Below, in pieces: positions 18,401 to 55,768 of a stretch of 64,000 nt of DNA; position 1 is the first letter of the stretch, and each line of letters opens with the position of its first letter. The translations under genes and the position numbers were made by a program. The notes below the pieces were generated by a model. That model searched no databases, was not told the origin of the DNA, and worked only from the letters and a program-made list of their open reading frames with translations. Source of the DNA: Leptospiraceae bacterium (GTDB taxonomy: Bacteria; Spirochaetota; Leptospiria; Leptospirales; Leptospiraceae); contig JACKPC010000001.1 in assembly GCA_024233835.1 (NCBI GenBank), positions 1,349,442-1,413,441 on the forward strand, in the 5' to 3' direction.

Positions 18401-18582
18401 CTAAACGTTATATCCTAACATCATTGAAAAGAGAATATGCCAGCGAACATGGAACCGAGCTAAACTCCACTCTCCCCAAGATGAGTCCACTCAATCCCCA
18501 ATACAAAACCAAAAAGCAAAATGTTTTTAAGAAAATATCCGATTTTGTAGAAAAGTTTAAGGGTGTAGGTGGCAAATTATGA
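15475..18582 (+). CDS. hsdR: Type I restriction enzyme R subunit HsdR (SF2 helicase/translocase).
   Basis: Helicase motif I ([10 protein letters not shown]) and motif II DEAH box ([10 protein letters not shown]), with a ~1040-aa length. I chose the ATG at 15475 with the GGAGAAAATAATG RBS, which overlaps the upstream stop. The ORF track offers an earlier in-frame start at 15448. Confidence 0.9.
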
Positions 18583-20926: not shown

Positions 20927-21074
20927 GTGATAGTGGGGCTTTACTCGGCCTTCGGGCTGGTTGATTTTAATGGAGGAATCATCGGAGACTGAGTAGCGAA
21001 GCCGGAGAGCCGGAGGAAGGGAACTTGATACCTACATTCCAAATCTACTTGACTCATAAAAACCAGAGGTTGAA

Positions 21075-38111: not shown

Positions 38112-39032
38112 TTATTGTCCGAGTCTAAAAAAGTTTCTGTCGGAACACAGGTAAATAAACTCAAAGAGTTCCAATAAATCCAAATTTTCCTGAGTGATTT
38201 CTCTTTCCGGGTAGAGAATAATATCCACCCCGGTTTCCTGTAAATCTTTTAGTACCTGCAAGGGGCTATTCTTAAAATAAGGATGGGCTGGTTCCCAATT
38301 CACACAGACAAGGCCTCCCTGATTCTGGATGTCCTGCACCCATTCTTCTTTGTTTAGAGGAATATCTGAATTTTTTAATATACTACTATATCTTAGTGCT
38401 GGCTCAGGGTTACTCAGCATAAAACTTTTGGAATGTAAAAGTTCTTTTTGTAAAATCATATCCTCTTGTTTCTCTGTATGCCTGCTATTGTACACTTCCC
38501 AGGCTTTTTTTACCGGAAGCCCGATAGTAATCGTTTTATCGGAATAGCTTAGCTTACTTTCCGGTAAATCCTCTGTGTTCAAAATCGAATATAGGTCTTT
38601 TTTGGGTACAAGGATATTCTCACCTGATTTCGTAAAAAACTCTTCCGCCTCTTTTTCCGAAGCCAAAAGACGTTCTGGAAAATCTTTCTCCCGAAAAAGT
38701 AAGTTTACCAGGAAAAACTTGAAGATGTATAGGGTCTGATATACTTTTCCATCCCGTATGGTCTCTGCCTCCCAGAGAATACGGTTTGAATGCAGGGTTT
38801 TTAGTTTGAAATCAATCAAATAACGCAGGCCCGGAAGTTCTTCCTGAACTTCTCGAATACAGGTATTTTTAATGGAATAATCATCGAGTTCTCTTTCATA
38901 GTGTCCGCTGATGATGTTATAGCGTTCGTATCTCCGGTTGTATTGCAGCAATAATTTGTCTCCTACAAACAAAAGAACCCCGGCACCAATGCTGATTCGA
39001 TTTATCATGTTTTCCTCAATTTGTCGTTTCAT
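38112..39032 (-). CDS. Hypothetical protein with a divergent Nudix-like N-terminal domain.
   Basis: GAGVLLFVGDKLLLQYNRR...SGHYERELDDYSIKNTCIREVQEELPG resembles the Nudix box (REx2EE). It is not an exact match. Confidence 0.4.
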   Translation of the reverse strand: MKRQIEENMINRISIGAGVLLFVGDKLLLQYNRRYERYNIISGHYERELDDYSIKNTCIREVQEELPGLRYLIDFKLKTLHSNRILWEAETIRDGKVYQTLYIFKFFLVNLLFREKDFPERLLASEKEAEEFFTKSGENILVPKKDLYSILNTEDLPESKLSYSDKTITIGLPVKKAWEVYNSRHTEKQEDMILQKELLHSKSFMLSNPEPALRYSSILKNSDIPLNKEEWVQDIQNQGGLVCVNWEPAHPYFKNSPLQVLKDLQETGVDIILYPEREITQENLDLLELFEFIYLCSDRNFFRLGQ

Positions 39033-39176: not shown

Positions 39177-41003
39177 TTAAAACCTTCCTATTACTTTGAA
39201 AGGATATTTTGAGAACGTTTTTGAACCTTCACAAACGGAATTTGCGTCGGCTATGGTTTTTAACCTGTAGCACTTGGTTTGTCCGTCTGTTCCGGGGCGT
39301 AAGTAAGCATAGGGAAAAGAGCCGGCTCCGTACGAGTTAGTTGAAACATAGCTTCCTACTAATTCCGGATCGCTTGTGCTGTAGTAGCAGGAGGTTTCAT
39401 AGACCTTAATGACTCCCGGACATTTCACCCCGGTACCATCGAGCTTTTTCAATTCTACCAGGACATGAAGCAGGTAATCATTTTCTGCTGTATAGTATCT
39501 TCCGGCGATAGTATTTTCTACTGACTCATAAGCATATACAGTCGAGTCTGATGTAACGCTGATGTCCTGACATTTATTTGATAGTGTATCATGAAATAAG
39601 CCGGACTGGCAGGAAGAGATTACACATTTTGTACCGCTTATCCAGCTCATACCGTCGGAAGAACAGGTATCGGTTCTATAGGCGGAGCTGGCGTATTTCG
39701 CAGAACAGCTTACCTGTTTTGTAGAGCCGGGAGTGCAAATCTTCTTTAACTGACAGCTTCCATTTACAATTTCACGTCCGCTATCACAGCTAAGTACCTG
39801 ACAGGATGTCTGGCTGCTATAGGCACTGCCGGTGGAGTTACAGGTTTTTGTGTAGCTTCCGGTTCCGTAGGGAACATAACAGGAAAAACTTGTAGTAGAG
39901 TTCGGCGTGCAGACCCAGGGGTAGCAAAACCCTCCTGAAAGGTAATGTCCTGTATTACATGAATCTAATATACAATTTCCCCAGCTTCCATTAGACCAGC
40001 TCATGGTTCCTGTTCCGTTCGAGCCCGAACAGGCTTTTGTGTTCGGCAGACACTGGTTATTTTCTTCATGTGTGTTTAAGGGACAGACTAACTCGTTTTT
40101 AACACAGGTATTATTTGACTCGTGGCTATCCAGGGGACAGGTTATCGTAAACGAGCAGTTTGCTACATTAGAAATCTGACCGCTTGCATTTTTAACTGTG
40201 TAGGTAAACGATGTGGTGCCGGCAAAATTAGCCTGTGCGGTAAAGATTCCATTTGCCTGGTTATAGCTTCCCTTGAGTCCGGCTGTATTGACAGAAGCAA
40301 TACTCAATCCGGAAGATGGTGTATCATTTGCTAATATATTCGTTGATACAGAGCTGTTATAGGCTATTGTGTAGGTATCATTATTTGCCACGGGTGGATT
40401 CGTTCCGGTTCCGGTTCCGGTTCCGGTTCCGGTTCCTGTTCCTGTTCCTGTTCCTGTTCCTGTTCCTGTTCCTGTTCCAGTTCCTGTGCCGGTTCCTGTG
40501 CCTGTTCCACCTTTTACCGGAGTTTCATCATACGATTCTCCTCCGACCGGTGGAATATAAGACGGAATTTTGATTGAAATAAAACTCAGGTTCTTACTCC
40601 GGTCTTCTGCAACAAGAGTAATGTAGTCTCCCGGCTTTAGCTTATCTAAAGGAACTTTTCCAAACATTTTCCCGGAGAGAATCGTATTCTTTTCTATAAG
40701 CGTCCTGAGTTCCTGTGTCGATTTGGGTTCATCGGAAGTTTTGAGTATTATCTCCCGAATGTCTTCTTTCTTTGTAAGATCATCCGTGACTTCCGGCACA
40801 GTAAGAATTCCGCTCGTGGCTGAATCTGCCTTGTAAGTCAAAACTCCAGCAAATTTAGGTGCTACTGTATCCGGCTTTGCACAGGGTCCCGTTTGAGACA
40901 GAACGCAAGAATGAATAAATGTATTTGCCAAATCTTCTTTCTTCTCTCCCGGACAGTTCAAAAAGAAGAAAGGAACTATCAATAAAACGATTGACTTTTT
41001 CAT
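39177..41003 (-). CDS. Lipoprotein with (GT)19 dipeptide-repeat linker and Cys-rich C-terminal modules.
   Basis: Lipobox (LLIVPFFFLNCPG). Its N-domain is paralogous to the 24281-26335 lipoprotein. Its C-terminal Cys-rich modules are homologous to those of the M23 peptidase (CNTGHYLSGGFC..CTPGSTKQVSC..). Confidence 0.7.
   Translation of the reverse strand: MKKSIVLLIVPFFFLNCPGEKKEDLANTFIHSCVLSQTGPCAKPDTVAPKFAGVLTYKADSATSGILTVPEVTDDLTKKEDIREIILKTSDEPKSTQELRTLIEKNTILSGKMFGKVPLDKLKPGDYITLVAEDRSKNLSFISIKIPSYIPPVGGESYDETPVKGGTGTGTGTGTGTGTGTGTGTGTGTGTGTGTGTGTGTNPPVANNDTYTIAYNSSVSTNILANDTPSSGLSIASVNTAGLKGSYNQANGIFTAQANFAGTTSFTYTVKNASGQISNVANCSFTITCPLDSHESNNTCVKNELVCPLNTHEENNQCLPNTKACSGSNGTGTMSWSNGSWGNCILDSCNTGHYLSGGFCYPWVCTPNSTTSFSCYVPYGTGSYTKTCNSTGSAYSSQTSCQVLSCDSGREIVNGSCQLKKICTPGSTKQVSCSAKYASSAYRTDTCSSDGMSWISGTKCVISSCQSGLFHDTLSNKCQDISVTSDSTVYAYESVENTIAGRYYTAENDYLLHVLVELKKLDGTGVKCPGVIKVYETSCYYSTSDPELVGSYVSTNSYGAGSFPYAYLRPGTDGQTKCYRLKTIADANSVCEGSKTFSKYPFKVIGRF
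40399..40512. repeat. Hexanucleotide tandem repeat (ggttcc/tgttcc-type, 19 units) encoding (GT)19.
   Basis: Read directly in the sequence. Confidence 0.9.
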
Positions 41004-41368: not shown

Positions 41369-44300
41369 ATGAATTCAGAAATCATTCTTGACTATAGCCG
41401 TTTTTCCATCGAGGAACTGGCAGAAAAAGACTACACTACAGCCCAAAGCTTCATGAAAGAAAAAGTAGAGAAGAATCTTTTTCGAGAGATTTCCAAAGAA
41501 GCTTATAAAGAATTTGTAGAGAATCTAAAGGAATTCTGGCTGGAAGATCTGCGAGAATTTAAACCGGAGAGAGGTTTTACACTTACGATTCGCTTTATGT
41601 CAGCCGGCCTGACCGCTGCTTCTGTATTTCGCTGCGAGGTCGATATCTGCGGGGACATAGCCACTCCCAAAGTGGTTGTTTGTAAATACGACGAGAAGGA
41701 AAATATAGAAATTGAGTCTCAAAACTTTAGAATGGTTATAAAATCAGGAGAGTCGGTCTTTCCGGACATCCAAAAAGCCCAGGCTTTTGAAAATGGGATG
41801 GCTCTTTTAACCATGCGTTCTGCTATCGAGAGTAAGAGTGCCATCACGGTTTTCAGTGCTATCAAGTTTATCCTCGATAAATACGGGCAGAACGAAAGAA
41901 TGCTGGAATTTTATGCCAAAGTATTCGCGAATCATACCGGGATTGTCTACCGGGATATGCGGGATAAACTGTATCATACGCCGAATGCTCACTGGACTTC
42001 TCAGGACTCATTTCGCGGGCTTTATGCAGGTAAGACGGACTTAAAGGTTTTAGACGATAAAACAAAAGCCAGTCCGAATGGAACTTTCTCCGAAAGACTG
42101 AAAAAAGTCTGTTTAGATACCGGTCTGGAATATGAGAGTTTTCTAAATTTCTTAAGTACTTTTCCCGATTGCAGGGCTTTACTCTCCGGTGTGGCTATCC
42201 ATAAGGATTTGAATCCTAACAATATCTTACTGGCTATCGGGGAAGATAGCGATAGGAATGAAATCATCAGTCCTATGCTGATTGACTTTTTTGAAATGCA
42301 GTATAAAGAGAATGAAAGGGGAGAAAACTGGCTTCCCCTGCTTTTTGATTTTAGCCGCTTTGAAGCCCAGATGTTTTTGTATTATTTCAGCTATTTAAGT
42401 AAAAGCTCAAATTCTAAAGAAGTTTTCTTTCAATCCTTTAAAAGGCTGATAGATGCCCTGAACAGGGGCAGGCTCGTAAAAATCAATTCAGCGGATCCGG
42501 CTGTTATAAGTAATGAAGCTCTTAGCTATATCTTTACTATCTTTTTCAAGCTTCGAGGCTATGTCTTTCGTGATTTAGCCGAACTGGGAATTGAGAAAAA
42601 GCTTATATACCAGAACTACCTATCTTCTCTGTCTTCGTTTTACTTTTCCTTTTTGAAAATGGATAAGGAAGAAGCTTTTCAAGATAAGTGGAATTTCTCC
42701 CTTCTGGCTGCGGATACCTGTAGAAAAAACATTATCGAGCTAACCGATAAACTGGACTATGACTCGATTTATCGGGAATCCAAATCGGACAGGCTGCATA
42801 TCGGTGATTCCATGATGGCTCTTTTAGAAAGGAAACGTTATCACCATATAGCTCTTTCTGATAACTTACAAAAAGTTAAGGATTTCTTACACTCGGATAA
42901 GCAAATCCTTTATATCGAATCATCACCGGGAATGGGGAAATCCTCCTTTCTGGCTTATATCTGTGATGCTCTGAACGATAATATCCCGGAAAGTGAATTA
43001 CCGGGAAACGTGTTTTGCATCCCGGTATTTTTTGATGATAAAGACAAGGCAAAAGTAAAAGAAAGAGAAACCAACAGGGCACTGAAGACAAAAGAAGAAC
43101 AAAACATCGAGCTTAATTTTCAGGACATAGCCGATTATTTTGTCCAAATCCTCTGTGCTGCGTTTCATAAAGTGGATAAAGCACCGGAAGAAAAAAGCAC
43201 CGACCGTTTTATCCGGCTCTGCCACGAAATTTATCCTGAGCTGGAACAAAAAAAGCAACAGGTCGTTTTCTTAGTCGATGCTCTCGACAGGAATTTTATA
43301 GAACTCGAACACTATGTCCTGACCAACCGTCTGCCGGGGCGGTTTCAGTATATTTTATCGAGTAGACCCCAAAATCCGCGCTGGGAAAGCTTTTATAATG
43401 AGCAGAGGCAGTTCTTTCGCTCAGAAACCTATAAGCTGGCAGAGTTTTCCAAAGATGATATTCGGGCTCTCTTTCAGGAATGGAAGGTGAGTCCGGAACT
43501 GACAGAAGAGGAAGCCGCATTACTCCATGAAAAAACCGGTGGTTACCCCATTTATGTAGAATTTATCCGCAGGCTTTTAGTAGCTGAAAAAGGCCGGGCA
43601 GCCAAGATGAGGCGGGAGGAACTGAAAGAGAGGCTGCATAGCTTTTCCAAAGAAGGTTTTGAAAGGGAATTATTTGATTATTATGATGAGCTGGTAAAAT
43701 CCAAAAATAAAATTGTAAAACAGGTTCTGTTTTGTCTGGTGCTGGCAAAGGACTATCTTTCGGCTGCACATCTGGCCCGAATTTTATACGAGGAATTGGA
43801 AAGAGAGTATCATACGGATATAGAGGCCGACCTGATAGATGTTTTAAAGGACGACATTCTTCCTGTTATCCGGGAAGTCCTCGAATACGATGAAAATCAA
43901 AACTTTCGAATCTTTCACCGAAGCTATGAAAGATACCTGGAAGAAAAGTATCAGGGAAAAGGAGGTCTTCGAGATTTCCGGGCAACTTTTTTTCGGTATC
44001 TTAAGCAGTACAGAGACTATGCAGAAAACGAGGAGGAGAGAGTTCACTTTCTCTACTGTAAGAATTACCTCGGTTTACACCTCTACGAATGGGCACAATC
44101 CGAGAAAAGTTATCAAGAGAAATTCGATACTATTTTTGCCGAAATTTTTTCTATGGAAGAGGAAGAATACAGACTCTGGAAAAAGCCCCTGAAAGCCATG
44201 GTTTATTGGATGATGGAGAATCAGCCTTATAATGAAACTGAATTTATGCTGACTTTTTTAAAAAGTCAGATTCCGGCTATCTTTAGTTATCGCTACTTCC

Positions 44301-46204
44301 TGTTTTTGACTGAGATAATCGAGAAAAAGAAAAACAAGGGCTATGATACAACCTGGAATGCTTCTCTTCATTTCTTAAATTTGGAATTGATACAGGCTTT
44401 ATCCAAGTCCGAACCCAATAACACTCAGTATAAAAGAGACATTTCGGTTTCTTATGACAGAATTGCTGATGTGTATGTATCGAGGGGAGAGACCGATAAA
44501 GCTCTGAAACATTTCACCGAATCTCTACTGATTGCAGAACAATTATCAAACTCCGAACCCAATAACAGTCTGTATAAAAGAGACATTTCGGTTTCTTATA
44601 ACAGACTTGCTGATGTGTATGTATCGAGGGGAGAGACCGATAAAGCTCTGAAACATTTCACCGAATCTCTACTGATTGCAGAACAATTATCCAAGTCCGA
44701 ACCCAATAACACTCAGTACAAAAGAGACATTTCGGTTTCTTATGACAGACTTGCTGATGTGTATGTATCGAGGGGAGAGACCGATAAAGCTCTGAAACAT
44801 TTCACCGAATCTCTACTGATTGCAGAACAATTATCCAAGTCCGAACCCAATAACACTCAGTATAAAAGAGACATTTCGATTTATTTAAATAAGATTGCTG
44901 ATGTGTATGTATCGAGGGGAGAGACCGATAAAGCTCTGGAGTATTACACCGAATCTCTACTGATTGCAGAACAATTATCAAACTCGGAACCCAATAACAC
45001 TCAGTATAAAAGAGACATTTCGATTTATTTAAATAAGATTGCTGATGTGTATGTATCGAGGGGAGAGACCGATAAAGCTCTGGAGTATTACACCGAATCT
45101 CTACTGATTGCAGAACAATTATCCAAGTCCGAACCCAATAACAGTCTGTATAAAAGAGACATTTCGGTTTCCTTTAATAACATTGCAGATATATATGTAT
45201 CGAGGGGAGAGACCGATAAAGCTCTGGAGTATTACACCGAATCTCTACAGATTGCAGAACAATTATCAAACTCGGAGCCCAATAACACTCAGTATAAAAG
45301 AGACATTTCGGTTTCTTATGACAGAATTGCTGATGTGTATGTATCGAGGGGAGAGACCGATAAAGCTCTGGAGTATTACACCGAATCTCTACTGATTGCA
45401 GAACAATTATCAAACTCCGAACCCAATAACACTCAGTATAAAAGAGACATTGTTCATAGTTTAATTAAGAAAGGTAATATCTTGATCTTCAAAGGAGATG
45501 TAGGAAAAGCAAAAAGTAGTTATGAAAAAGCTTTATCGCTTATAAATGTGGATGTTATAGATGTATCTATATTTTTTACAAAACTCAAGGCGGAAGTGCT
45601 ACAGGGTCTTGTTACGGTCTCTATGATGGATTCTGAAGAACAGGATTCTGATAAAATTTTCAGTTATTCTCTGGAAGCCCTTTCCTTATGGGAGAAACTA
45701 AAGGAAGAATATGGCACAATCGATATACAAGTGCTAAATGGATTAGGAAAGTCTAATTTTCTCTTAGCTGTATTATCTGGTAATTTAGAAACGGGTGAAC
45801 AGAGAAAATATATACATAAGGCTATTAAAAATCTTTTGGAAGTTCATAAAATTCAAGCAGATAATCCGGATGTTTTGATGATGCTTTCGAATGCTTATTC
45901 TATGCTTGGCAATGATTACTTAGAAAAAGAAGAAACAGAAAAAGCCAGAGAAGTAATTGAAAAATCTATAAATTATAGCCGAGCACTGGTTGAAAAATTT
46001 CCCGAAAATTACAACTATAAGCAAAGTATAATTTTTCCTTTAATAAGTATTGCTCAACTGGAAGATGATGAATCAAAAGCAATAGAATATTTAAAAGAAG
46101 CTTATGAAACGATTATAGCTTTGGAAAAAAAAGGCTATCATATACCGGGGATAGAAGAAATGAAGAATTGGATTCAATCTGTTATAGAAGGGAATGAAGA
46201 ATGA
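41369..46204 (+). CDS. Kinase-like / NACHT (STAND) NTPase / tandem helical-repeat protein, paralog B (1611 aa).
   Basis: Collinear with paralog A: GLTAASVFRCE, VCKYD, AIHKDLNPNNILL, IDFFEMQY. Walker A (SSPGMGKSSF), Walker B (VVFLVDALDRNF) and ILSSRPQNP. The C-terminus has seven-plus 48-aa near-identical repeats and then further helical repeats. Confidence 0.8.
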   Translation: MNSEIILDYSRFSIEELAEKDYTTAQSFMKEKVEKNLFREISKEAYKEFVENLKEFWLEDLREFKPERGFTLTIRFMSAGLTAASVFRCEVDICGDIATPKVVVCKYDEKENIEIESQNFRMVIKSGESVFPDIQKAQAFENGMALLTMRSAIESKSAITVFSAIKFILDKYGQNERMLEFYAKVFANHTGIVYRDMRDKLYHTPNAHWTSQDSFRGLYAGKTDLKVLDDKTKASPNGTFSERLKKVCLDTGLEYESFLNFLSTFPDCRALLSGVAIHKDLNPNNILLAIGEDSDRNEIISPMLIDFFEMQYKENERGENWLPLLFDFSRFEAQMFLYYFSYLSKSSNSKEVFFQSFKRLIDALNRGRLVKINSADPAVISNEALSYIFTIFFKLRGYVFRDLAELGIEKKLIYQNYLSSLSSFYFSFLKMDKEEAFQDKWNFSLLAADTCRKNIIELTDKLDYDSIYRESKSDRLHIGDSMMALLERKRYHHIALSDNLQKVKDFLHSDKQILYIESSPGMGKSSFLAYICDALNDNIPESELPGNVFCIPVFFDDKDKAKVKERETNRALKTKEEQNIELNFQDIADYFVQILCAAFHKVDKAPEEKSTDRFIRLCHEIYPELEQKKQQVVFLVDALDRNFIELEHYVLTNRLPGRFQYILSSRPQNPRWESFYNEQRQFFRSETYKLAEFSKDDIRALFQEWKVSPELTEEEAALLHEKTGGYPIYVEFIRRLLVAEKGRAAKMRREELKERLHSFSKEGFERELFDYYDELVKSKNKIVKQVLFCLVLAKDYLSAAHLARILYEELEREYHTDIEADLIDVLKDDILPVIREVLEYDENQNFRIFHRSYERYLEEKYQGKGGLRDFRATFFRYLKQYRDYAENEEERVHFLYCKNYLGLHLYEWAQSEKSYQEKFDTIFAEIFSMEEEEYRLWKKPLKAMVYWMMENQPYNETEFMLTFLKSQIPAIFSYRYFLFLTEIIEKKKNKGYDTTWNASLHFLNLELIQALSKSEPNNTQYKRDISVSYDRIADVYVSRGETDKALKHFTESLLIAEQLSNSEPNNSLYKRDISVSYNRLADVYVSRGETDKALKHFTESLLIAEQLSKSEPNNTQYKRDISVSYDRLADVYVSRGETDKALKHFTESLLIAEQLSKSEPNNTQYKRDISIYLNKIADVYVSRGETDKALEYYTESLLIAEQLSNSEPNNTQYKRDISIYLNKIADVYVSRGETDKALEYYTESLLIAEQLSKSEPNNSLYKRDISVSFNNIADIYVSRGETDKALEYYTESLQIAEQLSNSEPNNTQYKRDISVSYDRIADVYVSRGETDKALEYYTESLLIAEQLSNSEPNNTQYKRDIVHSLIKKGNILIFKGDVGKAKSSYEKALSLINVDVIDVSIFFTKLKAEVLQGLVTVSMMDSEEQDSDKIFSYSLEALSLWEKLKEEYGTIDIQVLNGLGKSNFLLAVLSGNLETGEQRKYIHKAIKNLLEVHKIQADNPDVLMMLSNAYSMLGNDYLEKEETEKAREVIEKSINYSRALVEKFPENYNYKQSIIFPLISIAQLEDDESKAIEYLKEAYETIIALEKKGYHIPGIEEMKNWIQSVIEGNEE
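44395..45450. repeat. 144-bp tandem repeat array (7 full units plus a partial one) inside the paralog B gene.
   Basis: Units begin with tccgaacccaataac every 144 bp. Differences are confined to a few codon positions (TQ/SL, VS/IY, YDR/YNR/LNK/FNN, KHF/EYY, K/N). Confidence 0.9.
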
Positions 46205-46413
46205 TTTAGTGTTGATATATTTTTTAATGTAAAAATACATCCTGATGAAGTAGATCTATATAACAGGCTGTAAGAAATAACTTGGATGATAGAAAATAAA
46301 TAGCACTCTGTGATTCAGGAAAGAAACTCTGTTACCCTGACTCTGTATTTCTGTATCCGATCTTTTTTCACGCACTTCCAAATCTACTTGACTCATAAAA
46401 TCCAGAGGTTGAA

Positions 46414-48219
46414 ATGAGTTCTATTATGATAAAGTTTCCCTACGGTATCATGGATTTTTCTGACATAATTACAGAAGCTTATTTCTATCAGGACAGGACG
46501 GCCTTTATAGAGAAATGTGAAAATACAGCCAAGACTCTCTTCTGTGTTCGACCAAGGCGTATGGGAAAGACTCTCTGGCTCGATACCCTGGCCAGTTATT
46601 ACGACATTCTCAAAAAAGACCGTTTTGATGACTTGTTCGGAAGTCTTTATATCGGGAAAAACCCAACACCCAGGCGAAACTCTTATCTTATCCTGAGGCT
46701 CGATTTTTCGAAGATTCAACCGGGCAAAACAGTAGAAGAAATCGAGAGTAGTTTTAATGATTATATAACAAATATTACTCGTGAGTTTTTGATAAATTAT
46801 AAAGATTTCCTGATTGATTATTCAATTGATTTCAGTTCCAAAAAGGCAAATCATTCTCTGGATCAACTTTTAAGCTCTGTAAAACTATCCGGTCACAAGT
46901 TATATGTTCTAATAGATGAGTATGATAATTTTACCAACGAACTCATCAGCACCAACAGGTCGAAAGACTATTCGGATCTGGTTACAGGGGATGGCTTTCT
47001 GAAATCCTTCTTCAAAGTTCTGAAAGCCGGTAACATAGGTGCTATTGATAGAACCTTTGTGACAGGAGTTACGCCCATCACTCTAACTGACCTTTCGAGT
47101 GCCTATAATATTGCTACCCACATCACTTTTAAAGAAGAGTTTAATTCCTTATTGGGTTTTACGGAAGAGGAAGTAGAAGCCATGCTCGAAAGGGTCTTAG
47201 AAGAAATTGATCTGATGGCTAAAAAAGAAGAAATTCTTTCTCAGATGAGATACTATTATGATGGCTATATTTTTCATGAGGAAAGTGAGGAGCATATTTA
47301 TAACCCGACCCTGACCTTGTTTTATCTTCAGGCCCTATTAAAAGAACGTAAAATTCCTAAAAAGTTTTTTGATAAGAACCTCGATATGGACATCAATAAG
47401 TTGGAGCACATTACAAAGCTAAGTTCCGTGCATGACAAAGTATTTGCTCTTTTAGAAAACGAGGAAAAGGTAAGCATTTCACATATAGTAGAAGAATTTA
47501 AACTGAAAGAACTCCTTACTATGGATGAACAGGCGGATAACTTTCTCTGGTCGTATTTGTTTTATCATGGCATCTTAACCTTTGGTGGAATAGATAGAAC
47601 AAGGGTCCAATTAAAAATACCGAATACAGTATCCAGACATTTCTATTATGATAGAATTCGTTATAGCATTTTGCCGAAGAAATTAGATATATCTGAAATG
47701 CAGGAGAAGTTTTTTCTGGATTTAAATCTTTCTGAATTACAATCCTTTTTAGAAAAAACGGTACTGCCTTATTTATCTAACCGTGACTACATTCAGGCCA
47801 ATGAACTGTCTATGAAAATAATGTTTCTCTCTCTCATGATGCGGGATGACCTGTATATCATAGACAGTGAAAAAGAAATCTTACGTGGCTATTGCGACCT
47901 TTTCTACCTCGGTCGCGGAGATACTCGAAAGAAATATGGTTTAAAAGATATATTAATCGAGTTCAAATTTATTAAACTCTCAGAATTGGAAGTCACACAG
48001 AAAGAAATAAAAGAACTTTCTTATGAAGAACTGGAAAACCTTCCACTAATTCAGACAAAACTGAAAGAAGCCAGAGAACAACTATCCATTTACAAAGAAC
48101 GTTTGGAGAAGAGATTTCTTAACCATAATCCCTTTTTCAAAGATATGAGTGATTTTAAAATTCACCCCTTAAGTATTGTGTTTATTGGTTTTGACAGGGT
48201 AGTAGTAAAACCCGCTTGA
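46414..48219 (+). CDS. AAA-ATPase-like / PD-(D/E)XK protein, paralog copy 2.
   Basis: Same family signatures as copy 1. Mosaic with module variants B, X and Q (see findings). Confidence 0.8.
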   Translation: MSSIMIKFPYGIMDFSDIITEAYFYQDRTAFIEKCENTAKTLFCVRPRRMGKTLWLDTLASYYDILKKDRFDDLFGSLYIGKNPTPRRNSYLILRLDFSKIQPGKTVEEIESSFNDYITNITREFLINYKDFLIDYSIDFSSKKANHSLDQLLSSVKLSGHKLYVLIDEYDNFTNELISTNRSKDYSDLVTGDGFLKSFFKVLKAGNIGAIDRTFVTGVTPITLTDLSSAYNIATHITFKEEFNSLLGFTEEEVEAMLERVLEEIDLMAKKEEILSQMRYYYDGYIFHEESEEHIYNPTLTLFYLQALLKERKIPKKFFDKNLDMDINKLEHITKLSSVHDKVFALLENEEKVSISHIVEEFKLKELLTMDEQADNFLWSYLFYHGILTFGGIDRTRVQLKIPNTVSRHFYYDRIRYSILPKKLDISEMQEKFFLDLNLSELQSFLEKTVLPYLSNRDYIQANELSMKIMFLSLMMRDDLYIIDSEKEILRGYCDLFYLGRGDTRKKYGLKDILIEFKFIKLSELEVTQKEIKELSYEELENLPLIQTKLKEAREQLSIYKERLEKRFLNHNPFFKDMSDFKIHPLSIVFIGFDRVVVKPA

Positions 48220-48241
48220 CTTACTGAATATAAACCTTGAA

Positions 48242-50047
48242 ATGAGTTCTATTATGATAAAGTTTCCCTACGGTATCATGGATTTTTCTGACATAATCAC
48301 AGAAGCTTATTTCTATCAGGACAGGACGGCCTTTATAGAGAAATGCGAAAATACAGCCAAGACTCTCTTCTGTGTTCGACCAAGGCGTATGGGAAAAACT
48401 CTCTGGCTCGATACCCTGGCCAGTTATTACGACATTCTCAAAAAAGACCGTTTTGATGACTTGTTCGGAAGTCTTTATATCGGGAAAAACCCAACACCCA
48501 GGCGAAACTCTTATCTTATCCTGAGGCTCGATTTTTCGAAGATTCAACCGGGCAAAACAGTAGAAGAAATCGAGAGTAGTTTTAATGATTATATAACAAA
48601 TATTACTCGTGAGTTTTTGATAAATTATAAAGATTTCCTGATTGATTATTCAATTGATTTCAGTTCCAAAAAGGCAAATCATTCTCTGGATCAACTTTTA
48701 AGCTCTGTAAAACTATCCGGTCACAAGTTATATGTTCTAATAGATGAGTATGATAATTTTACCAACGAACTCATCAGCACCAACAGGTCGAAAGACTATT
48801 CGGATCTGGTTACAGGGGATGGCTTTCTGAAATCCTTCTTCAAAGTTCTGAAAGCCGGAAACATAGGTGCTATTGATAGAACCTTTGTGACAGGAGTTAC
48901 GCCCATCACTCTAACTGACCTTTCGAGTGCCTATAATATTGCTACCCACATCACTTTTAAAGAAGAGTTTAATTCCTTATTGGGTTTTACGGAAGAGGAA
49001 GTAGAAGCCATGCTCGAAAGGGTCTTAGAAGAAATTGATCTGATGGCTAAAAAAGAAGAAATTCTTTCTCAGATGAGATACTATTATGATGGCTATATTT
49101 TTCATGAGGAAAGCGAAGAGCATATTTATAACCCGACCCTGACCTTGTTTTATCTTCAGGCCCTATTAAAAGAACGTAAAATTCCTAAAAAGTTTTTTGA
49201 TAAGAACCTCGATATGGACATCAATAAGTTGGAGCACATTACAAAGCTAAGTTCCGTGCATGACAAAGTATTTGCTCTTTTAGAAAACGAGGAAAAGGTA
49301 AGCATTTCACATATAGTAGAAGAATTTAAACTGAAAGAACTCCTTACTATGGATGAACAGGCGGATAACTTTCTCTGGTCGTATTTGTTTTATCATGGCA
49401 TCTTAACCTTTGCTGGAGTAGATGCTTTTAATATTATTCTGAAAATTCCTAATATTGTTTCTCGTCGTTTTTATTATGATAGAATTCGTGCAGCCTGTTT
49501 TCCTCCGAAGCTGGATGCCAATCAGATTCACAAATCTTTCTTCATAGATCTAAACCTGTCTGAATTACAAACCTTTTTAGAGAAAACGGTATTACCTTAC
49601 CTATCCAACCGTGACTATATCCAGGCCAATGAACTTTCTATGAAAATAATGTTTCTCTCTCTCATGATGCGGGATGACCTGTATATCATAGACAGCGAAA
49701 AGGAAATCTTACGTGGTTATTGTGACCTTTTCTACCTCGGTCGCGGAGATACTCGAAAGAAATATGGTTTAAAAGATATATTAATCGAGTTCAAATTTAT
49801 TAAACTCTCAGAATTGGAAGTCACACAGAAAGAAATAAAAGAACTTTCTTATGAAGAACTGGAAAACCTTCCTCTAATTCAGGCAAAACTGAAAGAAGCC
49901 AAAGAACAGCTATCCATCTACAAAGAACGTTTGGAGAAGAGATTTCTTAACCATAATCCCTTTTTTAAAGATATGAGTGATTTTGAAATTCACCCCTTAA
50001 GTATTGTGTTCATTGGTTTTGACAGGGTAGTAGTAAAACCCGCTTGA
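48242..50047 (+). CDS. AAA-ATPase-like / PD-(D/E)XK protein, paralog copy 3.
   Basis: Nearly identical to copy 2 except for the third variable module (P). Confidence 0.8.
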   Translation: MSSIMIKFPYGIMDFSDIITEAYFYQDRTAFIEKCENTAKTLFCVRPRRMGKTLWLDTLASYYDILKKDRFDDLFGSLYIGKNPTPRRNSYLILRLDFSKIQPGKTVEEIESSFNDYITNITREFLINYKDFLIDYSIDFSSKKANHSLDQLLSSVKLSGHKLYVLIDEYDNFTNELISTNRSKDYSDLVTGDGFLKSFFKVLKAGNIGAIDRTFVTGVTPITLTDLSSAYNIATHITFKEEFNSLLGFTEEEVEAMLERVLEEIDLMAKKEEILSQMRYYYDGYIFHEESEEHIYNPTLTLFYLQALLKERKIPKKFFDKNLDMDINKLEHITKLSSVHDKVFALLENEEKVSISHIVEEFKLKELLTMDEQADNFLWSYLFYHGILTFAGVDAFNIILKIPNIVSRRFYYDRIRAACFPPKLDANQIHKSFFIDLNLSELQTFLEKTVLPYLSNRDYIQANELSMKIMFLSLMMRDDLYIIDSEKEILRGYCDLFYLGRGDTRKKYGLKDILIEFKFIKLSELEVTQKEIKELSYEELENLPLIQAKLKEAKEQLSIYKERLEKRFLNHNPFFKDMSDFEIHPLSIVFIGFDRVVVKPA

Positions 50048-50069
50048 CTTACTGAATATAAACCTTGAA

Positions 50070-51875
50070 ATGAGTTCTATTATGATAAAGTTTCCCTACG
50101 GTATCATGGATTTTTCTGACATAATCACAGAAGGTTATTTCTATCAGGATAGGACGGCCTTTATAGAGAAATGCGAAAATACAGCCAAGACTCTCTTCTG
50201 TGTTCGGCCAAGGCGCATGGGAAAGACTCTCTGGCTCGATACCCTGGCCAGTTATTACGATATTCTCAAAAAAGACCGTTTTGAGGACTTGTTCGGAAAT
50301 CTTCACGTAGGGAAACATCCAACATCAAGGCGAAACTCTTATCTTATCCTGAGGCTCGATTTTTCGAAGATCCAACCGGGCAAAACAGTAGAAGAAATCG
50401 AGAGTAGTTTTAATGATTATATTTACAGAACAATTAAGAAGTTTTCAGAAGATTACAGAGATTTTATTGAATCAGATAAATTAGATCTATATAAAGATAG
50501 CTGTACAGGTTCTCTCGATAGTTTATGTAATTACGTCGAATCATCCGGCCACAAGTTATATGTTCTAATAGATGAGTATGATAATTTTACCAACGAACTC
50601 ATCAGCACCAACAGGTCGAAAGACTATTCGGACTTAGTTACAGGGGATGGCTTTCTAAAATCCTTCTTCAAAGTTCTGAAAGCCGGTAACATAGGTGCCA
50701 TTGATAGAACCTTTGTGACAGGAGTCACGCCCATCACTCTAACCGATCTTTCGAGTGCCTATAATATCGCTACCCACATCACTTTTAAAGAAGAGTTTAA
50801 TTCCTTATTGGGTTTTACGAAAGAGGAAGTAGAAGCCATGCTCGAAATGGTCTTAGAAGAAATTGGCCTGATAACCAAGAAAAAAGAAATCTTATCTCTT
50901 ATGAAATATTATTATGACGGTTATACTTTTAGCAGAAGAGCTAAAGAGCATATTTACAATCCCACCCTGACCATGTATTTTCTGAATAATTTATTGGAGG
51001 AAAAAGATATACCACAACAACTTCTGGACAGGAACCTTGATATGGACATCAATAAGTTGGAGCACATTACAAAGCTAAGCTCCGTGCATAACAAGGTATT
51101 TGCTCTTTTAGAAAACGAGGAAAAGGTAAGCATTTCACATATAGTAGAAGAATTTAAACTGAAAGAACTCCTTACTATGGACGAACAGGCTGATAACTTT
51201 CTCTGGTCGTATTTGTTTTATCATGGCATCTTAACCTTTGGTGGAATAGATAGAACAAGGGTCCAATTAAAAATACCGAATACAGTCTCCAGACATTTCT
51301 ATTATGATAGAATTCGTTATAGTATCCTTCCGAAGAAACTAGATATATCTGAAATGCAGGAGAAGTTTTTTCTGGATTTAAATCTTTCTGAATTACAATC
51401 CTTTTTAGAAAAAACGGTACTGCCTTATTTATCTAACCGTGACTACATTCAGGCCAATGAACTGTCTATGAAAATAATGTTTCTCTCTCTCATGATGCGG
51501 GATGACCTGTATATCATAGACAGTGAAAAAGAAATCTTACGTGGTTATTGTGACCTTTTCTACCTCGGTCGCGGAGATACTCGAAAGAAATATGGTTTAA
51601 AAGATATATTAATCGAGTTCAAATTTATTAAACTCTCAGAATTGGAAGTCACACAGAAAGAAATAAAAGAACTTTCTTATGAAGAACTGGAAAACCTTCC
51701 TCTAATTCAGGCAAAACTGAAAGAAGCCAAAGAACAGCTATCCATCTACAAAGAACGTTTGGAGAAGAGATTTCTTAACCATAATCCCTTTTTCAAAGAT
51801 ATGAGTGATTTTAAAATTCACCCCTTAAGTATTGTGTTCATTGGTTTTGACAGGGTAGTAGTAAAACCCGCTTGA
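50070..51875 (+). CDS. AAA-ATPase-like / PD-(D/E)XK protein, paralog copy 4.
   Basis: Module variants A, Y and Q. Confidence 0.8.
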   Translation: MSSIMIKFPYGIMDFSDIITEGYFYQDRTAFIEKCENTAKTLFCVRPRRMGKTLWLDTLASYYDILKKDRFEDLFGNLHVGKHPTSRRNSYLILRLDFSKIQPGKTVEEIESSFNDYIYRTIKKFSEDYRDFIESDKLDLYKDSCTGSLDSLCNYVESSGHKLYVLIDEYDNFTNELISTNRSKDYSDLVTGDGFLKSFFKVLKAGNIGAIDRTFVTGVTPITLTDLSSAYNIATHITFKEEFNSLLGFTKEEVEAMLEMVLEEIGLITKKKEILSLMKYYYDGYTFSRRAKEHIYNPTLTMYFLNNLLEEKDIPQQLLDRNLDMDINKLEHITKLSSVHNKVFALLENEEKVSISHIVEEFKLKELLTMDEQADNFLWSYLFYHGILTFGGIDRTRVQLKIPNTVSRHFYYDRIRYSILPKKLDISEMQEKFFLDLNLSELQSFLEKTVLPYLSNRDYIQANELSMKIMFLSLMMRDDLYIIDSEKEILRGYCDLFYLGRGDTRKKYGLKDILIEFKFIKLSELEVTQKEIKELSYEELENLPLIQAKLKEAKEQLSIYKERLEKRFLNHNPFFKDMSDFKIHPLSIVFIGFDRVVVKPA

Positions 51876-51897
51876 CTTACTGAATATAAACCTTGAA

Positions 51898-53697
51898 ATG
51901 AGTTCTATTATGATAAAGTTTCCCTACGGTATCATGGATTTTTCTGACATAATCACAGAAGGTTATTTCTATCAGGATAGGACGGCCTTTATAGAGAAAT
52001 GCGAAAATACAGCCAAGACTCTCTTCTGTGTTCGGCCAAGGCGCATGGGAAAGACTCTCTGGCTCGATACCCTGGCCAGTTATTACGATATTCTCAAAAA
52101 AGACCGTTTTGAGGACTTGTTCGGAAATCTTCACGTAGGGAAACATCCAACATCAAGGCGAAACTCTTATCTTATCCTGAGGCTCGATTTTTCGAAGATC
52201 CAACCGGGCAAAACAGTAGAAGAAATCGAGAGTAGTTTTAATGATTATATTTACAGAACAATTAAGAAGTTTTCAGAAGATTACAGAGATTTTATTGAAT
52301 CAGATAAATTAGATCTATATAAAGATAGCTGTACAGGTTCTCTCGATAGTTTATGTAATTACGTCGAATCATCCGGCCACAAGTTATATGTTCTAATAGA
52401 TGAGTATGATAATTTTACCAACGAACTCATCAGCACCAACAGGTCGAAAGACTATTCGGACTTAGTTACAGGGGATGGCTTTCTAAAATCCTTCTTCAAA
52501 GTTCTGAAAGCCGGTAACATAGGTGCCATTGATAGAACCTTTGTGACAGGAGTCACGCCCATCACTCTAACCGATCTTTCGAGTGCCTATAATATCGCTA
52601 CCCACATCACTTTTAAAGAAGAGTTTAATTCCTTATTGGGTTTTACGAAAGAGGAAGTAGAAGCCATGCTCGAAATGGTCTTAGAAGAAATTGGCCTGAT
52701 AACCAAGAAAAAAGAAATCTTATCTCTTATGAAATATTATTATGACGGTTATACTTTTAGCAGAAGAGCTAAAGAGCATATTTACAATCCCACCCTGACC
52801 ATGTATTTTCTGAATAATTTATTGGAGGAAAAAGATATACCACAACAACTTCTGGACAGGAACCTTGATATGGACATCAATAAGTTGGAGCACATTACAA
52901 AGCTAAGTTCTGTTCACGACAAAGTATTTGCTCTTTTAGAAAACGAGGAAAAGGTAAGCATTTCACATATAGTAGAAGAATTTAAACTGAAAGAACTCCT
53001 TACTATGGATGAACAGGCTGATAACTTTCTCTGGTCGTATTTGTTTTATCATGGCATCTTAACTTTTGGTGGAGTAGATGCTTTTAATATTCTTCTGAAA
53101 ATTCCCAATATTGTTTCTCGCCGTTTTTATTATGATAGAATTCGTGCCGCCTGTTTTCCTTCAAAGCTGGATGCCAACCAGATTCACAAATCTTTCTTCA
53201 TAGATCTAAACCTTTCTGAATTACAATTCTTTTTAGAAAAAACGGTATTGCCTTATTTATCCAACCGTGACTATATCCAGGCCAATGAACTTTCTATGAA
53301 AATAATGTTTCTCTCTCTCATGATGCGGGAAGACCTGTATATTATAGACAGCGAAAAGGAGATCTTACGTGGTTATTGTGACCTTTTCTACCTCGGTCGC
53401 GGAGACACTCGGAAGAAATATGGTTTGAAAGATATATTAATCGAGTTCAAATTTATTAAACTCTCAGAATTGGAAGTCACACAGAAAGAAATAAAAGATC
53501 TTTCTTATGAAGAACTGGAAAACCTTCCTCTAATTCAGGCAAAACTGAAAGAAGCCAAAGAACAACTATCCATCTACAAAGAACGTTTGGAGAAGAGATT
53601 TCTTAACCATAATCCCTTTTTCAAAGATATGAGTGATTTTAAAATTCACCCCTTAAGTATTGTGTTTATTGGTTTTGACAGGGTAGTGGTGAAATAA
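51898..53697 (+). CDS. AAA-ATPase-like / PD-(D/E)XK protein, paralog copy 5.
   Basis: Module variants A, Y and P. Confidence 0.8.
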   Translation: MSSIMIKFPYGIMDFSDIITEGYFYQDRTAFIEKCENTAKTLFCVRPRRMGKTLWLDTLASYYDILKKDRFEDLFGNLHVGKHPTSRRNSYLILRLDFSKIQPGKTVEEIESSFNDYIYRTIKKFSEDYRDFIESDKLDLYKDSCTGSLDSLCNYVESSGHKLYVLIDEYDNFTNELISTNRSKDYSDLVTGDGFLKSFFKVLKAGNIGAIDRTFVTGVTPITLTDLSSAYNIATHITFKEEFNSLLGFTKEEVEAMLEMVLEEIGLITKKKEILSLMKYYYDGYTFSRRAKEHIYNPTLTMYFLNNLLEEKDIPQQLLDRNLDMDINKLEHITKLSSVHDKVFALLENEEKVSISHIVEEFKLKELLTMDEQADNFLWSYLFYHGILTFGGVDAFNILLKIPNIVSRRFYYDRIRAACFPSKLDANQIHKSFFIDLNLSELQFFLEKTVLPYLSNRDYIQANELSMKIMFLSLMMREDLYIIDSEKEILRGYCDLFYLGRGDTRKKYGLKDILIEFKFIKLSELEVTQKEIKDLSYEELENLPLIQAKLKEAKEQLSIYKERLEKRFLNHNPFFKDMSDFKIHPLSIVFIGFDRVVVK

Positions 53698-53803
53698 AGG
53701 GAAGAGTTCGGAGAAGTGCTTATCAACTCTTGAAACCTGAAACCATCTTTTCTTTTTTTCAACACTTCCAAATCTACTTGACTCATAAAATCCAAAGGTT
53801 GAA

Positions 53804-55603
53804 ATGAGTTCTATTATGATAAAGTTTCCCTACGGTATCATGGACTTTGATAAAATTATCACAGGTGGCTATTTCTATCAGGATAGGACGGCCTTTATAG
53901 AGAAATGCGAAAACTCGAACAGCACCCTTTTCTGTGTTCGACCAAGGCGTATGGGAAAAACTCTCTGGCTCGATACCCTGGCCAGTTATTACGATATTCT
54001 AAAGAAAAACCGTTTTGAGGACTTGTTCGGAAATCTTCACGTAGGGAAACATCCAACATCAAGGCGAAACTCTTATCTTATCCTGAGGCTCGATTTTTCG
54101 AAGATTCAACCGGGCAAAACAGTAGAAGAGATTGAGAGTAGTTTTAATGATTATATAACAAATATTATTCGTGAGTTTTTGATAACTTATAAAGATTTCC
54201 TGATTGATTATTCAATTGATTTCAGTTCCAAAAAAGCAAATCATTCCCTGGATCAACTTTTAAGTTCTGTAAAACTATCCGGTCACAAGTTATATGTTCT
54301 AATAGATGAGTATGATAATTTTACCAACGAACTCATCAGCACCAATAGGTCGAAAGACTATTCGGATCTGGTTACAGGGGATGGCTTTCTGAAATCCTTC
54401 TTCAAAGTTCTGAAAGCCGGAAACATAGGTGCTATTGATAGAACCTTTGTGACAGGAGTTACACCCATCACTCTAACTGATCTTTCCAGTGCCTATAATA
54501 TTGCTACCCACATCACTTTTAAAGAAGAGTTTAATTCCTTGATGGGTTTTACGGAAGAGGAAGTAGAAGCCATGCTCGAAAGGGTCTTAGAAGAAATTGA
54601 TCTGATGCCTAAAAAAGAAGAAATTCTTTCTCAGATGAGATACTATTATGATGGCTATATTTTTCATGAGGAAAGCGAAGAGCATATTTATAACCCGACC
54701 CTGACCTTGTTTTATCTTCAGGCCCTATTAAAAGAACGTAAAATTCCTAAAAAGTTTTTTGATAAGAACCTCGATATGGACATCAATAAGTTGGAGCACA
54801 TTACAAAGCTAAGCTCCGTGCATAACAAGGTATTTGCTCTTTTAGAAAATGAAGAAAAGGTAAGCATTTCACATATAGTCGAAGAATTTAAACTGAAAGA
54901 ACTCCTTACTATGGACGAACAGGCGGATAACTTTCTCTGGTCGTATTTGTTTTATCATGGCATCTTAACCTTTGCTGGAGTAGATGCTTTTAATATTATT
55001 CTGAAAATTCCTAATATTGTTTCTCGTCGTTTTTATTATGATAGAATTCGTGCAGCCTGTTTTCCTCCGAAGCTGGATGCCAATCAGATTCACAAATCTT
55101 TCTTCATAGATCTAAACCTGTCTGAATTACAAACCTTTTTAGAGAAAACGGTATTACCTTACCTATCCAACCGTGACTATATCCAGGCCAATGAACTTTC
55201 TATGAAAATAATGTTTCTCTCCCTGATGATGCGGGAAGAGCTGTATATCATAGACAGCGAAAAGGAAATCTTACGTGGCTATTGCGACCTTTTCTACCTC
55301 GGTCGCGGAGATACTCGAAAGAAATATGGTTTAAAAGATATATTAATCGAGTTCAAGTTTATTAAACTCTCAGAATTGGAACTTACACAGAAAGAAATAA
55401 AAGAACTTTCTTATGAAGAGCTGGAAAACCTTCCTCTAATTCAGGCAAAACTGAAAGAAGCTAATGAACAACTGTCCATCTACAAAGAACGTTTGGAGAA
55501 GAGATTTCTTAACCATAATCCCTTTTTTAAAGATATGAGTGATTTTGAAATACACCCCTTAAGTATTGTGTTCATTGGTTTTGACAGGGTTGTGGTAAAA
55601 TAG
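53804..55603 (+). CDS. AAA-ATPase-like / PD-(D/E)XK protein, paralog copy 6.
   Basis: Module variants B, X and P. Its N-terminus (DFDKIIT, ENSNSTLF) is like copy 1. Confidence 0.8.
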   Translation: MSSIMIKFPYGIMDFDKIITGGYFYQDRTAFIEKCENSNSTLFCVRPRRMGKTLWLDTLASYYDILKKNRFEDLFGNLHVGKHPTSRRNSYLILRLDFSKIQPGKTVEEIESSFNDYITNIIREFLITYKDFLIDYSIDFSSKKANHSLDQLLSSVKLSGHKLYVLIDEYDNFTNELISTNRSKDYSDLVTGDGFLKSFFKVLKAGNIGAIDRTFVTGVTPITLTDLSSAYNIATHITFKEEFNSLMGFTEEEVEAMLERVLEEIDLMPKKEEILSQMRYYYDGYIFHEESEEHIYNPTLTLFYLQALLKERKIPKKFFDKNLDMDINKLEHITKLSSVHNKVFALLENEEKVSISHIVEEFKLKELLTMDEQADNFLWSYLFYHGILTFAGVDAFNIILKIPNIVSRRFYYDRIRAACFPPKLDANQIHKSFFIDLNLSELQTFLEKTVLPYLSNRDYIQANELSMKIMFLSLMMREELYIIDSEKEILRGYCDLFYLGRGDTRKKYGLKDILIEFKFIKLSELELTQKEIKELSYEELENLPLIQAKLKEANEQLSIYKERLEKRFLNHNPFFKDMSDFEIHPLSIVFIGFDRVVVK

Positions 55604-55768
55604 AAGGGAAGGGTGTTTTTCCATAATTCGTTTTCTGTACCTATCGAGAAAGTAGAAAAAGTAAGAAAGATGAAATTTGAGAAATTAACTTAGCATTAAA
55701 AATCTATATCTCTTATAGTTTCGGATAATTTACAAGCGATATTCGGTTATACTTGAATTTAAGCTGAA

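Follow-up and report, generated by a model that had tools for sequence, protein, structure and literature searches.

Why do a few short segments of a gene stay deeply divergent among copies that are nearly uniform everywhere else? The question is raised by a 64,000-nucleotide (nt) stretch of DNA, here called the window, from an uncultured Leptospiraceae genome (GenBank assembly GCA_024233835.1, contig JACKPC010000001.1, forward-strand positions 1,349,442 to 1,413,441). It carries six intact plus-strand paralogs, c1 to c6, of an uncharacterised ATPase-nuclease gene of the DUF1703 family, encoding proteins of 599-601 amino acids (aa), with c2 to c6 arranged head to tail. A preliminary description of this DNA had reported six paralogs of about 600 aa, five in tandem, and six such open reading frames (ORFs) were indeed found, in one assembly. 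The locus as a whole is best explained, in our moderately confident view, as a recently expanded six-copy DUF1703 cluster that has become mosaic by recombination and encodes a repertoire of nucleases.

Four gene segments occur in two states

Differences among the copies are concentrated in four blocks. The DNA alignment of the six genes has 342 variable columns out of 1806, and 223 variable sites fall within the 525 nt of the blocks (0.42 per nt), compared with 0.088 per nt elsewhere. By alignment columns, M0 spans nt 42-126, M1 nt 354-480, M2 nt 797-962 and M3 nt 1172-1309. The preliminary description had seen blockwise differences in three two-state modules. The density of variable sites supports the blockwise pattern, and the states of M1, M2 and M3 were exactly as listed, with the combinations AXP, BXQ, BXP, AYQ, AYP and BXP from c1 to c6; however, a fourth block, M0, had been missed, and single-nucleotide polymorphisms (SNPs) of the intervening backbone are mosaic as well.

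The two states of a block are far apart. A and B of M1 differ at 69 of 129 nt and 30 of 43 aa (13/43 identical), with a proportion of synonymous differences (pS) of 0.72 and a nonsynonymous divergence (dN) of 0.79. X and Y of M2 differ at 57 of 168 nt and share 33 of 56 aa (pS 0.73, dN 0.29), P and Q of M3 differ at 62 of 141 nt and share 25 of 47 aa (pS 0.88, dN 0.42), and the M0 states show a pS of 0.55 with a proportion of nonsynonymous differences (pN) of 0.13. The backbone, by comparison, is about 98-99% identical in protein, has a pS of 0.08-0.22 and, with a dN/dS ratio (omega) of 0.04-0.09, is by this measure under strong purifying selection. Two states of one block are as distant from each other as either is from homologs 65-70% identical overall, and M1-A is as distant from everything as family members of 40% identity. 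Given the saturated synonymous sites and distances comparable to those of the 65-70% homologs, the block alleles appear to be old, and reshuffled by recombination, not created by it. The earlier proposal that recombination generates variants thus stands for the reshuffled combinations but not for the block alleles, whose pS of 0.72-0.88 marks them as ancient and not made within the array.

Recombination among the copies

Whichever two blocks are compared, all four combinations of their alleles are present. A homoplasy statistic resembling the pairwise homoplasy index (PHI) was 0.156, compared with 0.439 +/- 0.006 after permutation, and 0 of 1000 permutations reached the observed value. The Hudson-Kaplan minimum number of recombination events (Rm) was 34, and because the backbone SNPs are themselves mosaic, exchange was not confined to the blocks. 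Tracts of identity also switch partners along the gene: c4 equals c5 over nt 1-1010, c2 and c3 differ at 5 sites across nt 1-1171, in the 3' third of the gene c2 and c4 match exactly over long tracts (nt 1271-1475 and 1483-1631), and c3 equals c6 over nt 1114-1418. Allele combinations, homoplasy and partner switching together bear out recombination or gene conversion as the source of the mosaic, as had been suggested, and to judge from the sequences the array is a clear case of ordinary gene-family recombination.

Spacers and leaders further define the repeat. Identical 22-bp spacers had been described throughout the array; they separate c2/c3, c3/c4 and c4/c5, whereas c5 and c6 lie 106 bp apart. 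A leader of about 40 nt (...TTCCAAATCTACTTGACTCATAAAAxCCAGAGGTTGAA, with x a variable base) is found upstream of c1, c2 and c6. With three 22-bp spacers and a separate leader for c6, the array is a four-unit repeat of 1,828-bp period (c2-c5) followed by a separately led c6. Pairwise DNA identity over whole genes is 84.8-95.8%; of the range of 85-99% given earlier, the lower end therefore holds and the upper end does not, 100% being reached only over stretches such as that shared by c4 and c5.

Unequal crossing-over and gene conversion among the paralogs very probably account for these sequence patterns. The c2-c5 repeat would have grown by unequal crossing-over in steps of the gene plus its 22-bp junction. 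Partner-switching tracts suggest individual histories, in which c4 would be a hybrid of the c5 5' part and the c2 3' part arising from unequal crossing-over, and c3 a duplicate of c2 with a conversion patch of about 300 nt, M3 included, from c6. Non-allelic gene conversion would homogenise the backbone to its present protein identity, while the four segments would persist as two deeply diverged alleles each and, being moved whole between copies, reassort freely. Elsewhere in the genome are two more paralogs, P0006 (MCP5502290) and P0124 (MCP5502292), with about 67% identity to the array. Exchange between these and the array seems unlikely, with only two shared exact runs of at least 17 nt. P0006 and P0124 (L084/L087) lie one gene apart on a 462,701-bp contig and are identical except for the last few residues.

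No truncated or partial copy was found in the window, all six genes being full length. Each copy keeps 54 of the 54 residues invariant in a 115-sequence family alignment, and all six thus look functional. Proteins c2-c4 end in VVVKPA and c1, c5 and c6 in VVVK; NCBI gene models start at MIKF, four codons inside the ORFs used here. GC content of the array (0.35-0.37) is the same as that of its surroundings, and a promoter and terminator scan gave background numbers (33 found, 33.3 expected) and no evidence of an operon. Antisense minus-strand ORFs of 89-108 aa overlap the junctions and the 5' ends of c2-c5 (46393-46719, 48221-48547, 50049-50318 and 51877-52146) and are most simply explained by the repetition of the sequence.

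Table 1. Features of the window. Coordinates are window positions; for block M0 in c3, c4 and c5, add 1828, 3656 and 5484, respectively, to the c2 positions.
Feature	Position	Strand	Details
c1, solitary paralog	21075-22874	+	599 aa; MCP5499493; M0-1, A, X, P; ORF, PF09820 at 1.2e-51
c2, first array gene	46414-48219	+	601 aa; MCP5499505; M0-2, B, X, Q
c3	48242-50047	+	601 aa; MCP5499506; M0-2, B, X, P
c4	50070-51875	+	601 aa; MCP5499507; M0-2, A, Y, Q
c5	51898-53697	+	599 aa; MCP5499508; M0-2, A, Y, P
c6	53804-55603	+	599 aa; MCP5499509; M0-1, B, X, P
Block M0 in c2	46453-46539	+	gene nt 40-126, residues 14-42; c1 and c6 versus c2-c5 (column pattern 011110)
Block M1 in c2	46765-46893	+	gene nt 352-480, residues 118-160; A in c1, c4, c5; B in c2, c3, c6
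Block M2 in c2	47209-47376	+	gene nt 796-963, residues 266-321; Y in c4, c5; X in others
Block M3 in c2	47584-47724	+	gene nt 1171-1311, residues 391-437; Q in c2, c4; P in others
Walker A variant RPRRMGKT in c2	46549-46572	+	residues 46-53; R46, P47, R49, G51 and K52 invariant in 115 homologs
Walker B IDEYD in c2	46912-46926	+	residues 167-171; invariant in family
PD-(D/E)XK nuclease domain of c2	47803-48213	+	residues ~464-600; E464, D495, E516, K518
22-bp junction CTTACTGAATATAAACCTTGAA	48220-48241, 50048-50069, 51876-51897	+	identical at c2/c3, c3/c4, c4/c5
c5/c6 spacer	53698-53803	+	106 bp; holds leader copy
Leader of c1	21030-21074	+	about 40-45 nt (...TTCCAAATCTACTTGACTCATAAAAACCAGAGGTTGAA); nearly identical to c2 and c6 leaders
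Leader of c2	46369-46413	+	near-identical to c1 leader; precedes first array gene
Type I restriction-modification operon	10552-18582		hsdM, rhuM, hsdS, AAA_13 gene, hsdR

Predicted protein architecture and placement of the blocks

DUF1703 proteins are described as having an atypical Walker A motif, RPRRxGK[ST], a Walker B motif, DEYD, and nuclease motifs E...D...ExK (Knizewski 2007, PMC1913061). In agreement, RPRRMGKT, IDEYD, E464, D495 and E516-x-K518 show no variation in 115 homologs or in any of the six copies. Of the two profiles named in the preliminary description, PF09820 matched well (172.6 bits for c2 and 175.8 for c1; gathering cut-off 26.1), while PF08011 fell just under its cut-off of 25.5 (25.2 bits for c2, 24.6 for c1) with the E/D/ExK motif intact; homologs carry PF08011 as a precomputed annotation. 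The initial 'AAA-ATPase-like' label agrees with the PF09820 match but is more precisely given as a STAND/ORC-like nucleoside triphosphatase (NTPase) module. An AlphaFold2 (AF2) model (mean predicted local distance difference test score, pLDDT, 87; predicted template modelling score, pTM, 0.86) has the nucleotide-binding domain, helical lid and winged-helix module of a STAND protein. It lacks the repeat region of a STAND sensor (no TPR, WD40 or LRR), and PF09820 and PF08011 are the only Pfam domains. The protein is accordingly predicted to be a single-chain STAND/ORC-like NTPase, with nucleotide-binding domain, lid and winged-helix-like region, joined to a C-terminal PD-(D/E)XK nuclease. A profile search of PDB sequences with the family gave 0 matches.

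Blocks are well ordered in the model (pLDDT 82-95). M0 comprises helices ahead of strand β1 of the NTPase. M1 starts midway along helix 107-128, continues through a loop of 16 residues and includes helix 145-159; it is the helical insert that separates β2 (91-97) from the Walker B strand (162-168). Initiator-clade and STAND-type ATPases use an insert before Walker B for DNA contact or subunit packing. By inspection, the M1 hydrophobic positions F125, Y129, F132, L149, L152 and V156 are the same in A and B, with substitutions in between. M2 consists of the second lid helix (268-282), a loop, helix 298-311 and the following loop, and retains the conserved anchors YYDGY and IYNPT. M3 consists of a β-hairpin (389-401) and the two helices that connect it to the nuclease.

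The blocks across the DUF1703 family

Block replacement recurs outside the array. P0126, a variant of the 67%-identical sister paralogs from another data set (Logan SRR14234040), shows 0 differences from P0124 over nt 1-302 and 442-1761 (1,622 nt) and 76 differences in the 139 nt between (nt 303-441), which are exactly M1. In 59 close pairs of non-Leptospira homologs (0.5-12% overall difference), 30-aa windows with at least 40% mismatch are almost confined to residues 1-40, 101-160, 241-320 and 391-420. Regions 341-360 and 521-580, by contrast, vary across the family yet are identical among the six copies, which argues that the blocks are not simply the least constrained parts of the protein.

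M2 shows a coordinated change of charge. Net charges of residues 286-294 and 308-321 are -4 and +4 in X and +2 and -2 in Y. Across 112 homologs the charges of the two segments are anticorrelated (Spearman -0.48; -0.58 for window 307-320), and of all 14-residue windows in the protein, the eleven with the most negative correlation start at residues 303-313. This sequence pattern points to an electrostatic contact between the M2 halves, within or between protomers, which would account for the inheritance of M2 as a single unit.

DUF1703 occurs in thousands of bacterial genomes, including human-gut Bacteroides, often in many copies, and is found in free-living Desulfobacterota, Chloroflexota, Bacteroidota and large sulfur bacteria. 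Among 80 loci from unrelated genomes, 11 have a DUF1703 duplicate nearby. Phage (27 of 50,697) and plasmid (57 of 72,556) records seldom contain the family, which is uninformative for function, and a scan of genome contigs was swamped by the ubiquitous DEYDNFTN motif, returning relatives only 30-39% identical. In the closed cable-bacterium genome of Candidatus Electrothrix scaldis (CP138355.1; L085 8206-11797), a DUF1703 tandem pair with members 10 bp apart lies among metabolic genes, near a RecD-like helicase and an nSTAND1-WD40 protein. Tight DUF1703 tandem pairs are therefore not unique to the Leptospiraceae metagenome-assembled genome (MAG).

Possible roles of the mosaic and alternative explanations

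The near-constant backbone makes this locus a natural experiment, isolating four segments kept different by selection or recombination. As structured elements of the NTPase and winged-helix module, the blocks would most likely be surfaces for ligand or DNA recognition or for protomer-protomer assembly, and the cluster would supply a small repertoire of ATP-switched nucleases that differ in specificity or assemble separately from one another. We put this specificity account forward tentatively, at somewhat less than even confidence. Its most probable role would be conflict with foreign nucleic acids in the sensor-effector manner of NLR (nucleotide-binding leucine-rich repeat) proteins, and a role in defence is plausible. 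A wider proposal, which we regard as unlikely, is that the blocks form a general 'recognition and assembly code' of DUF1703, whose members would be widespread compact NLR-like sensor-nucleases and whose arrays would be recombining repertoires. Target or ligand specificity may then be governed by M1, a helical insert located where ORC/Cdc6-type ATPases have their initiator-specific motif, and by M3, the winged-helix hairpin; the charge-reversed M2 alleles would keep co-expressed paralogs orthogonal in oligomerisation. Blocks and M2 charge pair are in any case testable candidates for determinants of specificity or assembly in the family.

Neutral concerted evolution survives best among the alternatives, though we consider it rather unlikely. 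The blocks would then be segments too divergent for heteroduplex formation and not yet homogenised, and their reassortment would be without effect on specificity. In its favour, gene conversion is pervasive along the whole gene, as the Rm value indicates, dN/dS is below 1 in the blocks, the blocks are somewhat more variable across the family (entropy 1.5-2.1, average 1.34), and neither PADLOC nor the literature searched gave functional evidence for the family. Yet the blocks are evidently transferable as units, and both alleles of all four persist nonetheless. Regions 341-360 and 521-580, equally or more variable, have been fully homogenised among the copies, and the same four positions are block-replaced in unrelated lineages and in the sister subfamily. 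The coordinated charge reversal of M2 would imply a functional contact. Finally, M1 alleles that are only 30% identical, and so as distant as family members of 40% identity, are hard to square with the homogenisation of a backbone that was once equally divergent.

Several observations weigh against a selected nuclease repertoire. dN/dS between block alleles is below 1 with dS saturated, so that positive selection on the blocks cannot be shown. PADLOC-DB v2 yielded no defence match, only a chance-level match to E2 (E = 0.0048, 14.4 bits), and no functional study of the family was found in the literature searched. Relatives, both close and distant, have unrelated housekeeping genes as neighbours, and their contexts are heterogeneous: P0008 (65% identical), present as one gene, is flanked by a CDP-alcohol phosphatidyltransferase gene and recR/dnaX, and another homolog adjoins groES/EL. 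The preliminary description had taken neighbouring restriction-modification (R-M) and STAND genes as a hint of defence; the neighbours are there, but with no PADLOC match and relatives in unrelated neighbourhoods a defence role was not corroborated. The homologs used in the family-wide tests are not phylogenetically independent, and most come from short-read metagenomes. For copy number, order and block phase the long contig is the only source, and because short-read assemblies disagree inside the repeats, errors of assembly or polishing could account for part of the recombination signal in the backbone.

Reliability of the assembly

The window comes from a 2,049,248-bp contig of a Leptospiraceae MAG, a single assembly presumably made from long reads, and was compared with three short-read contigs evidently of the same strain. 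In the first (L082, GCA_020440905.1), 962 nt of c2 upstream sequence match the window at 100% identity and lead directly into a gene with the exact sequence of c5, after which come the 106-bp spacer and the beginning of c6; c2-c4 are missing, and the junction from c5 through the spacer to c6 is reproduced at 100% identity. In the second (L001), 17 of 17 mismatches lie in the first 435 nt, within the c1 backbone, and the remaining 7,770 nt are identical. The third (L083, ENA ERZ27248703) has 1535 nt identical to the region upstream of c1, followed by two tandem genes, E1 and E2, joined by the 22-bp junction, in which each segment is identical or nearly so to some window copy. We had considered it a second strain with a new BYQ combination and a duplicated c1 locus and dropped that interpretation in view of the 100% identical flank and patchwork segments; on its sequence, L083 is probably an assembler chimera. 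As an independent sample, it contains the 22-bp junction and all six block alleles. An exact search of JGI metagenomes for the 22-bp junction gave 0 matches.

An origin of the copy number, order or combinations in errors of assembly or polishing, starting from a smaller gene family or from strain variants, is quite improbable, although the collapsed array in L082, the patchwork of E1 and E2 and the confinement of L001 mismatches to paralog backbone would fit it. A contig of 2.05 Mb suggests long reads, and assemblers collapse such repeats and do not expand them. Three precise in-frame 22-bp junctions are present, and the junction recurs in an independent sample. The c5/c6 junction is reproduced exactly, all alleles are independently confirmed, and polishing cannot yield blocks that are about 50% divergent. 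In practice this is a warning about short-read MAGs, which for this strain show the array either collapsed or scrambled into chimeric genes.

Two remaining alternatives to a recombined nuclease repertoire fare worse. Secretion of the proteins as effector nucleases against a eukaryotic host, as proposed for the DUF1703 expansion of the symbiont Cardinium, is highly improbable: the same family is expanded and recombining in strain cCpun, where secretion is predicted (PMC6387759), but here the N-terminus (MSSIMIKFPYGIMDF...) runs into the NTPase core with no hydrophobic signal-like stretch by inspection, the family is spread through free-living lineages, and an ATP-switched STAND-like module is typical of cytoplasmic sensors. 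Dedicated diversification by a diversity-generating retroelement, an hsdS-type invertase shufflon or silent cassettes of the pilE/pilS or vlsE kind has as its sole support a superficial likeness of discrete cassettes in combinatorial arrangements and is effectively refuted, as a check of the larger ORFs of the window revealed no reverse transcriptase, invertase or integrase, differences occur at all four bases and not at adenines only, all copies lie in direct orientation on one strand with only two weak inverted repeats, none meaningful, and the six full-length copies have start codons and intact motifs, with no truncated cassettes.

Genomic context

Housekeeping genes (PDT, PCMT, a hybrid kinase and nuo) flank both loci. 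Upstream of c1, at a distance of 2.5 kb and beyond two unknown genes, is a type I R-M operon. The operon is interrupted by a RhuM-family gene (12105-13103, between hsdM and hsdS) and an AAA_13 ATPase gene (14361-15482, between hsdS and hsdR). Within hsdS (13100-14368), a perfect 12-bp tandem repeat, CACCGAACTTAC, is present in 4.1 copies at 13646-13696, in the central region of the specificity subunit. The repeat is similar to the TAEL repeats of EcoR124-type systems, in which the number of copies determines how long the spacer in the recognition sequence is, and it could be a slippage-prone specificity switch.

The array directly follows a STAND-TPR gene (41369-46204, 1611 aa) with a weak, subthreshold TCAD9 match (27.0 bits, cut-off 40). 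This gene contains 7.3 copies of a 144-bp unit (92% matches, 44399-45451) encoding TPR-type repeats; about six units are absent from L082, the repeat number being variable or collapsed there. A second STAND, a TCAD9-NACHT protein (34843-38100), scored 64.9 bits for TCAD9 against the same cut-off. Between the two NACHT/NB-ARC-like STANDs are minus-strand genes at 38112-39032 (no Pfam match) and 39177-41003 (Ig-like Big_9). The region looks like a conflict-system neighbourhood as described for multicellular bacteria. In-frame tandem repeats occur in minus-strand genes too: GTTCCT repeated 17.8 times in the Big_9 gene (40402-40508), a 171-bp unit repeated 2.3 times in an M23 peptidase gene (31743-32136) and a 15-bp unit repeated 7.4 times in an SBBP β-propeller gene (25720-25830).

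Comparison with known systems

Plant NLR (NB-ARC) tandem clusters evolve by unequal crossing-over and gene conversion, and if a defence role were confirmed the present array would be a bacterial parallel to them. Variation in plant NLRs lies in the C-terminal LRR sensor, whereas here there is no repeat sensor, the blocks lie inside the NTPase/winged-helix module and the C-terminus is a nuclease effector. Bacterial antiviral STANDs (Avs, NLR-like) that carry nuclease effectors differ in that the present proteins lack a TPR or other sensor, carry the effector at the C-terminus instead of the N-terminus, measure only about 600 aa and have no PADLOC match. Archaeal Arch_ATPase proteins PAB2304 and SSO1545 (PDB 2qen and 2fna) are 14-15% identical and without the nuclease domain. 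PF09820 is one of the domains that a review reports for RADAR RdrA (PMC10952713); c2 nonetheless matches no PADLOC model.

The closest precedent is Cardinium hertigii cCpun, with 25 dispersed DUF1703 paralogs of 39% average aa identity that show intragenic recombination by RDP4 and PHI and no homogenisation (Siozios et al. 2019, PMC6387759), the sole study on DUF1703 evolution found in the literature searched. Both cases involve a lineage-specific expansion of recombining paralogs of the same two-domain family. The Leptospiraceae genes, in contrast, form a tight head-to-tail array with a backbone of about 98-99% identity and two-state blocks, and fixed block positions are not described for Cardinium.

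Shuffling of HsdS target recognition domains (TRDs) likewise recombines divergent modules flanked by conserved sequence in a combinatorial way, and a similar role in specificity is suggested here. HsdS systems have inverted partial genes, usually a site-specific recombinase and one expressed copy, whereas the copies described here are direct, complete and potentially co-expressed. If the blocks did constitute a family-wide code, the array would be a prokaryotic analogue of NLR clusters with HsdS-TRD-like cassette exchange. Unequal crossing-over and gene conversion in tandem families are textbook processes. What is new is a nearly homogenised backbone with freely associating two-state blocks, the recurrence of the four block positions across the family, and the charge-reversed M2 pair.

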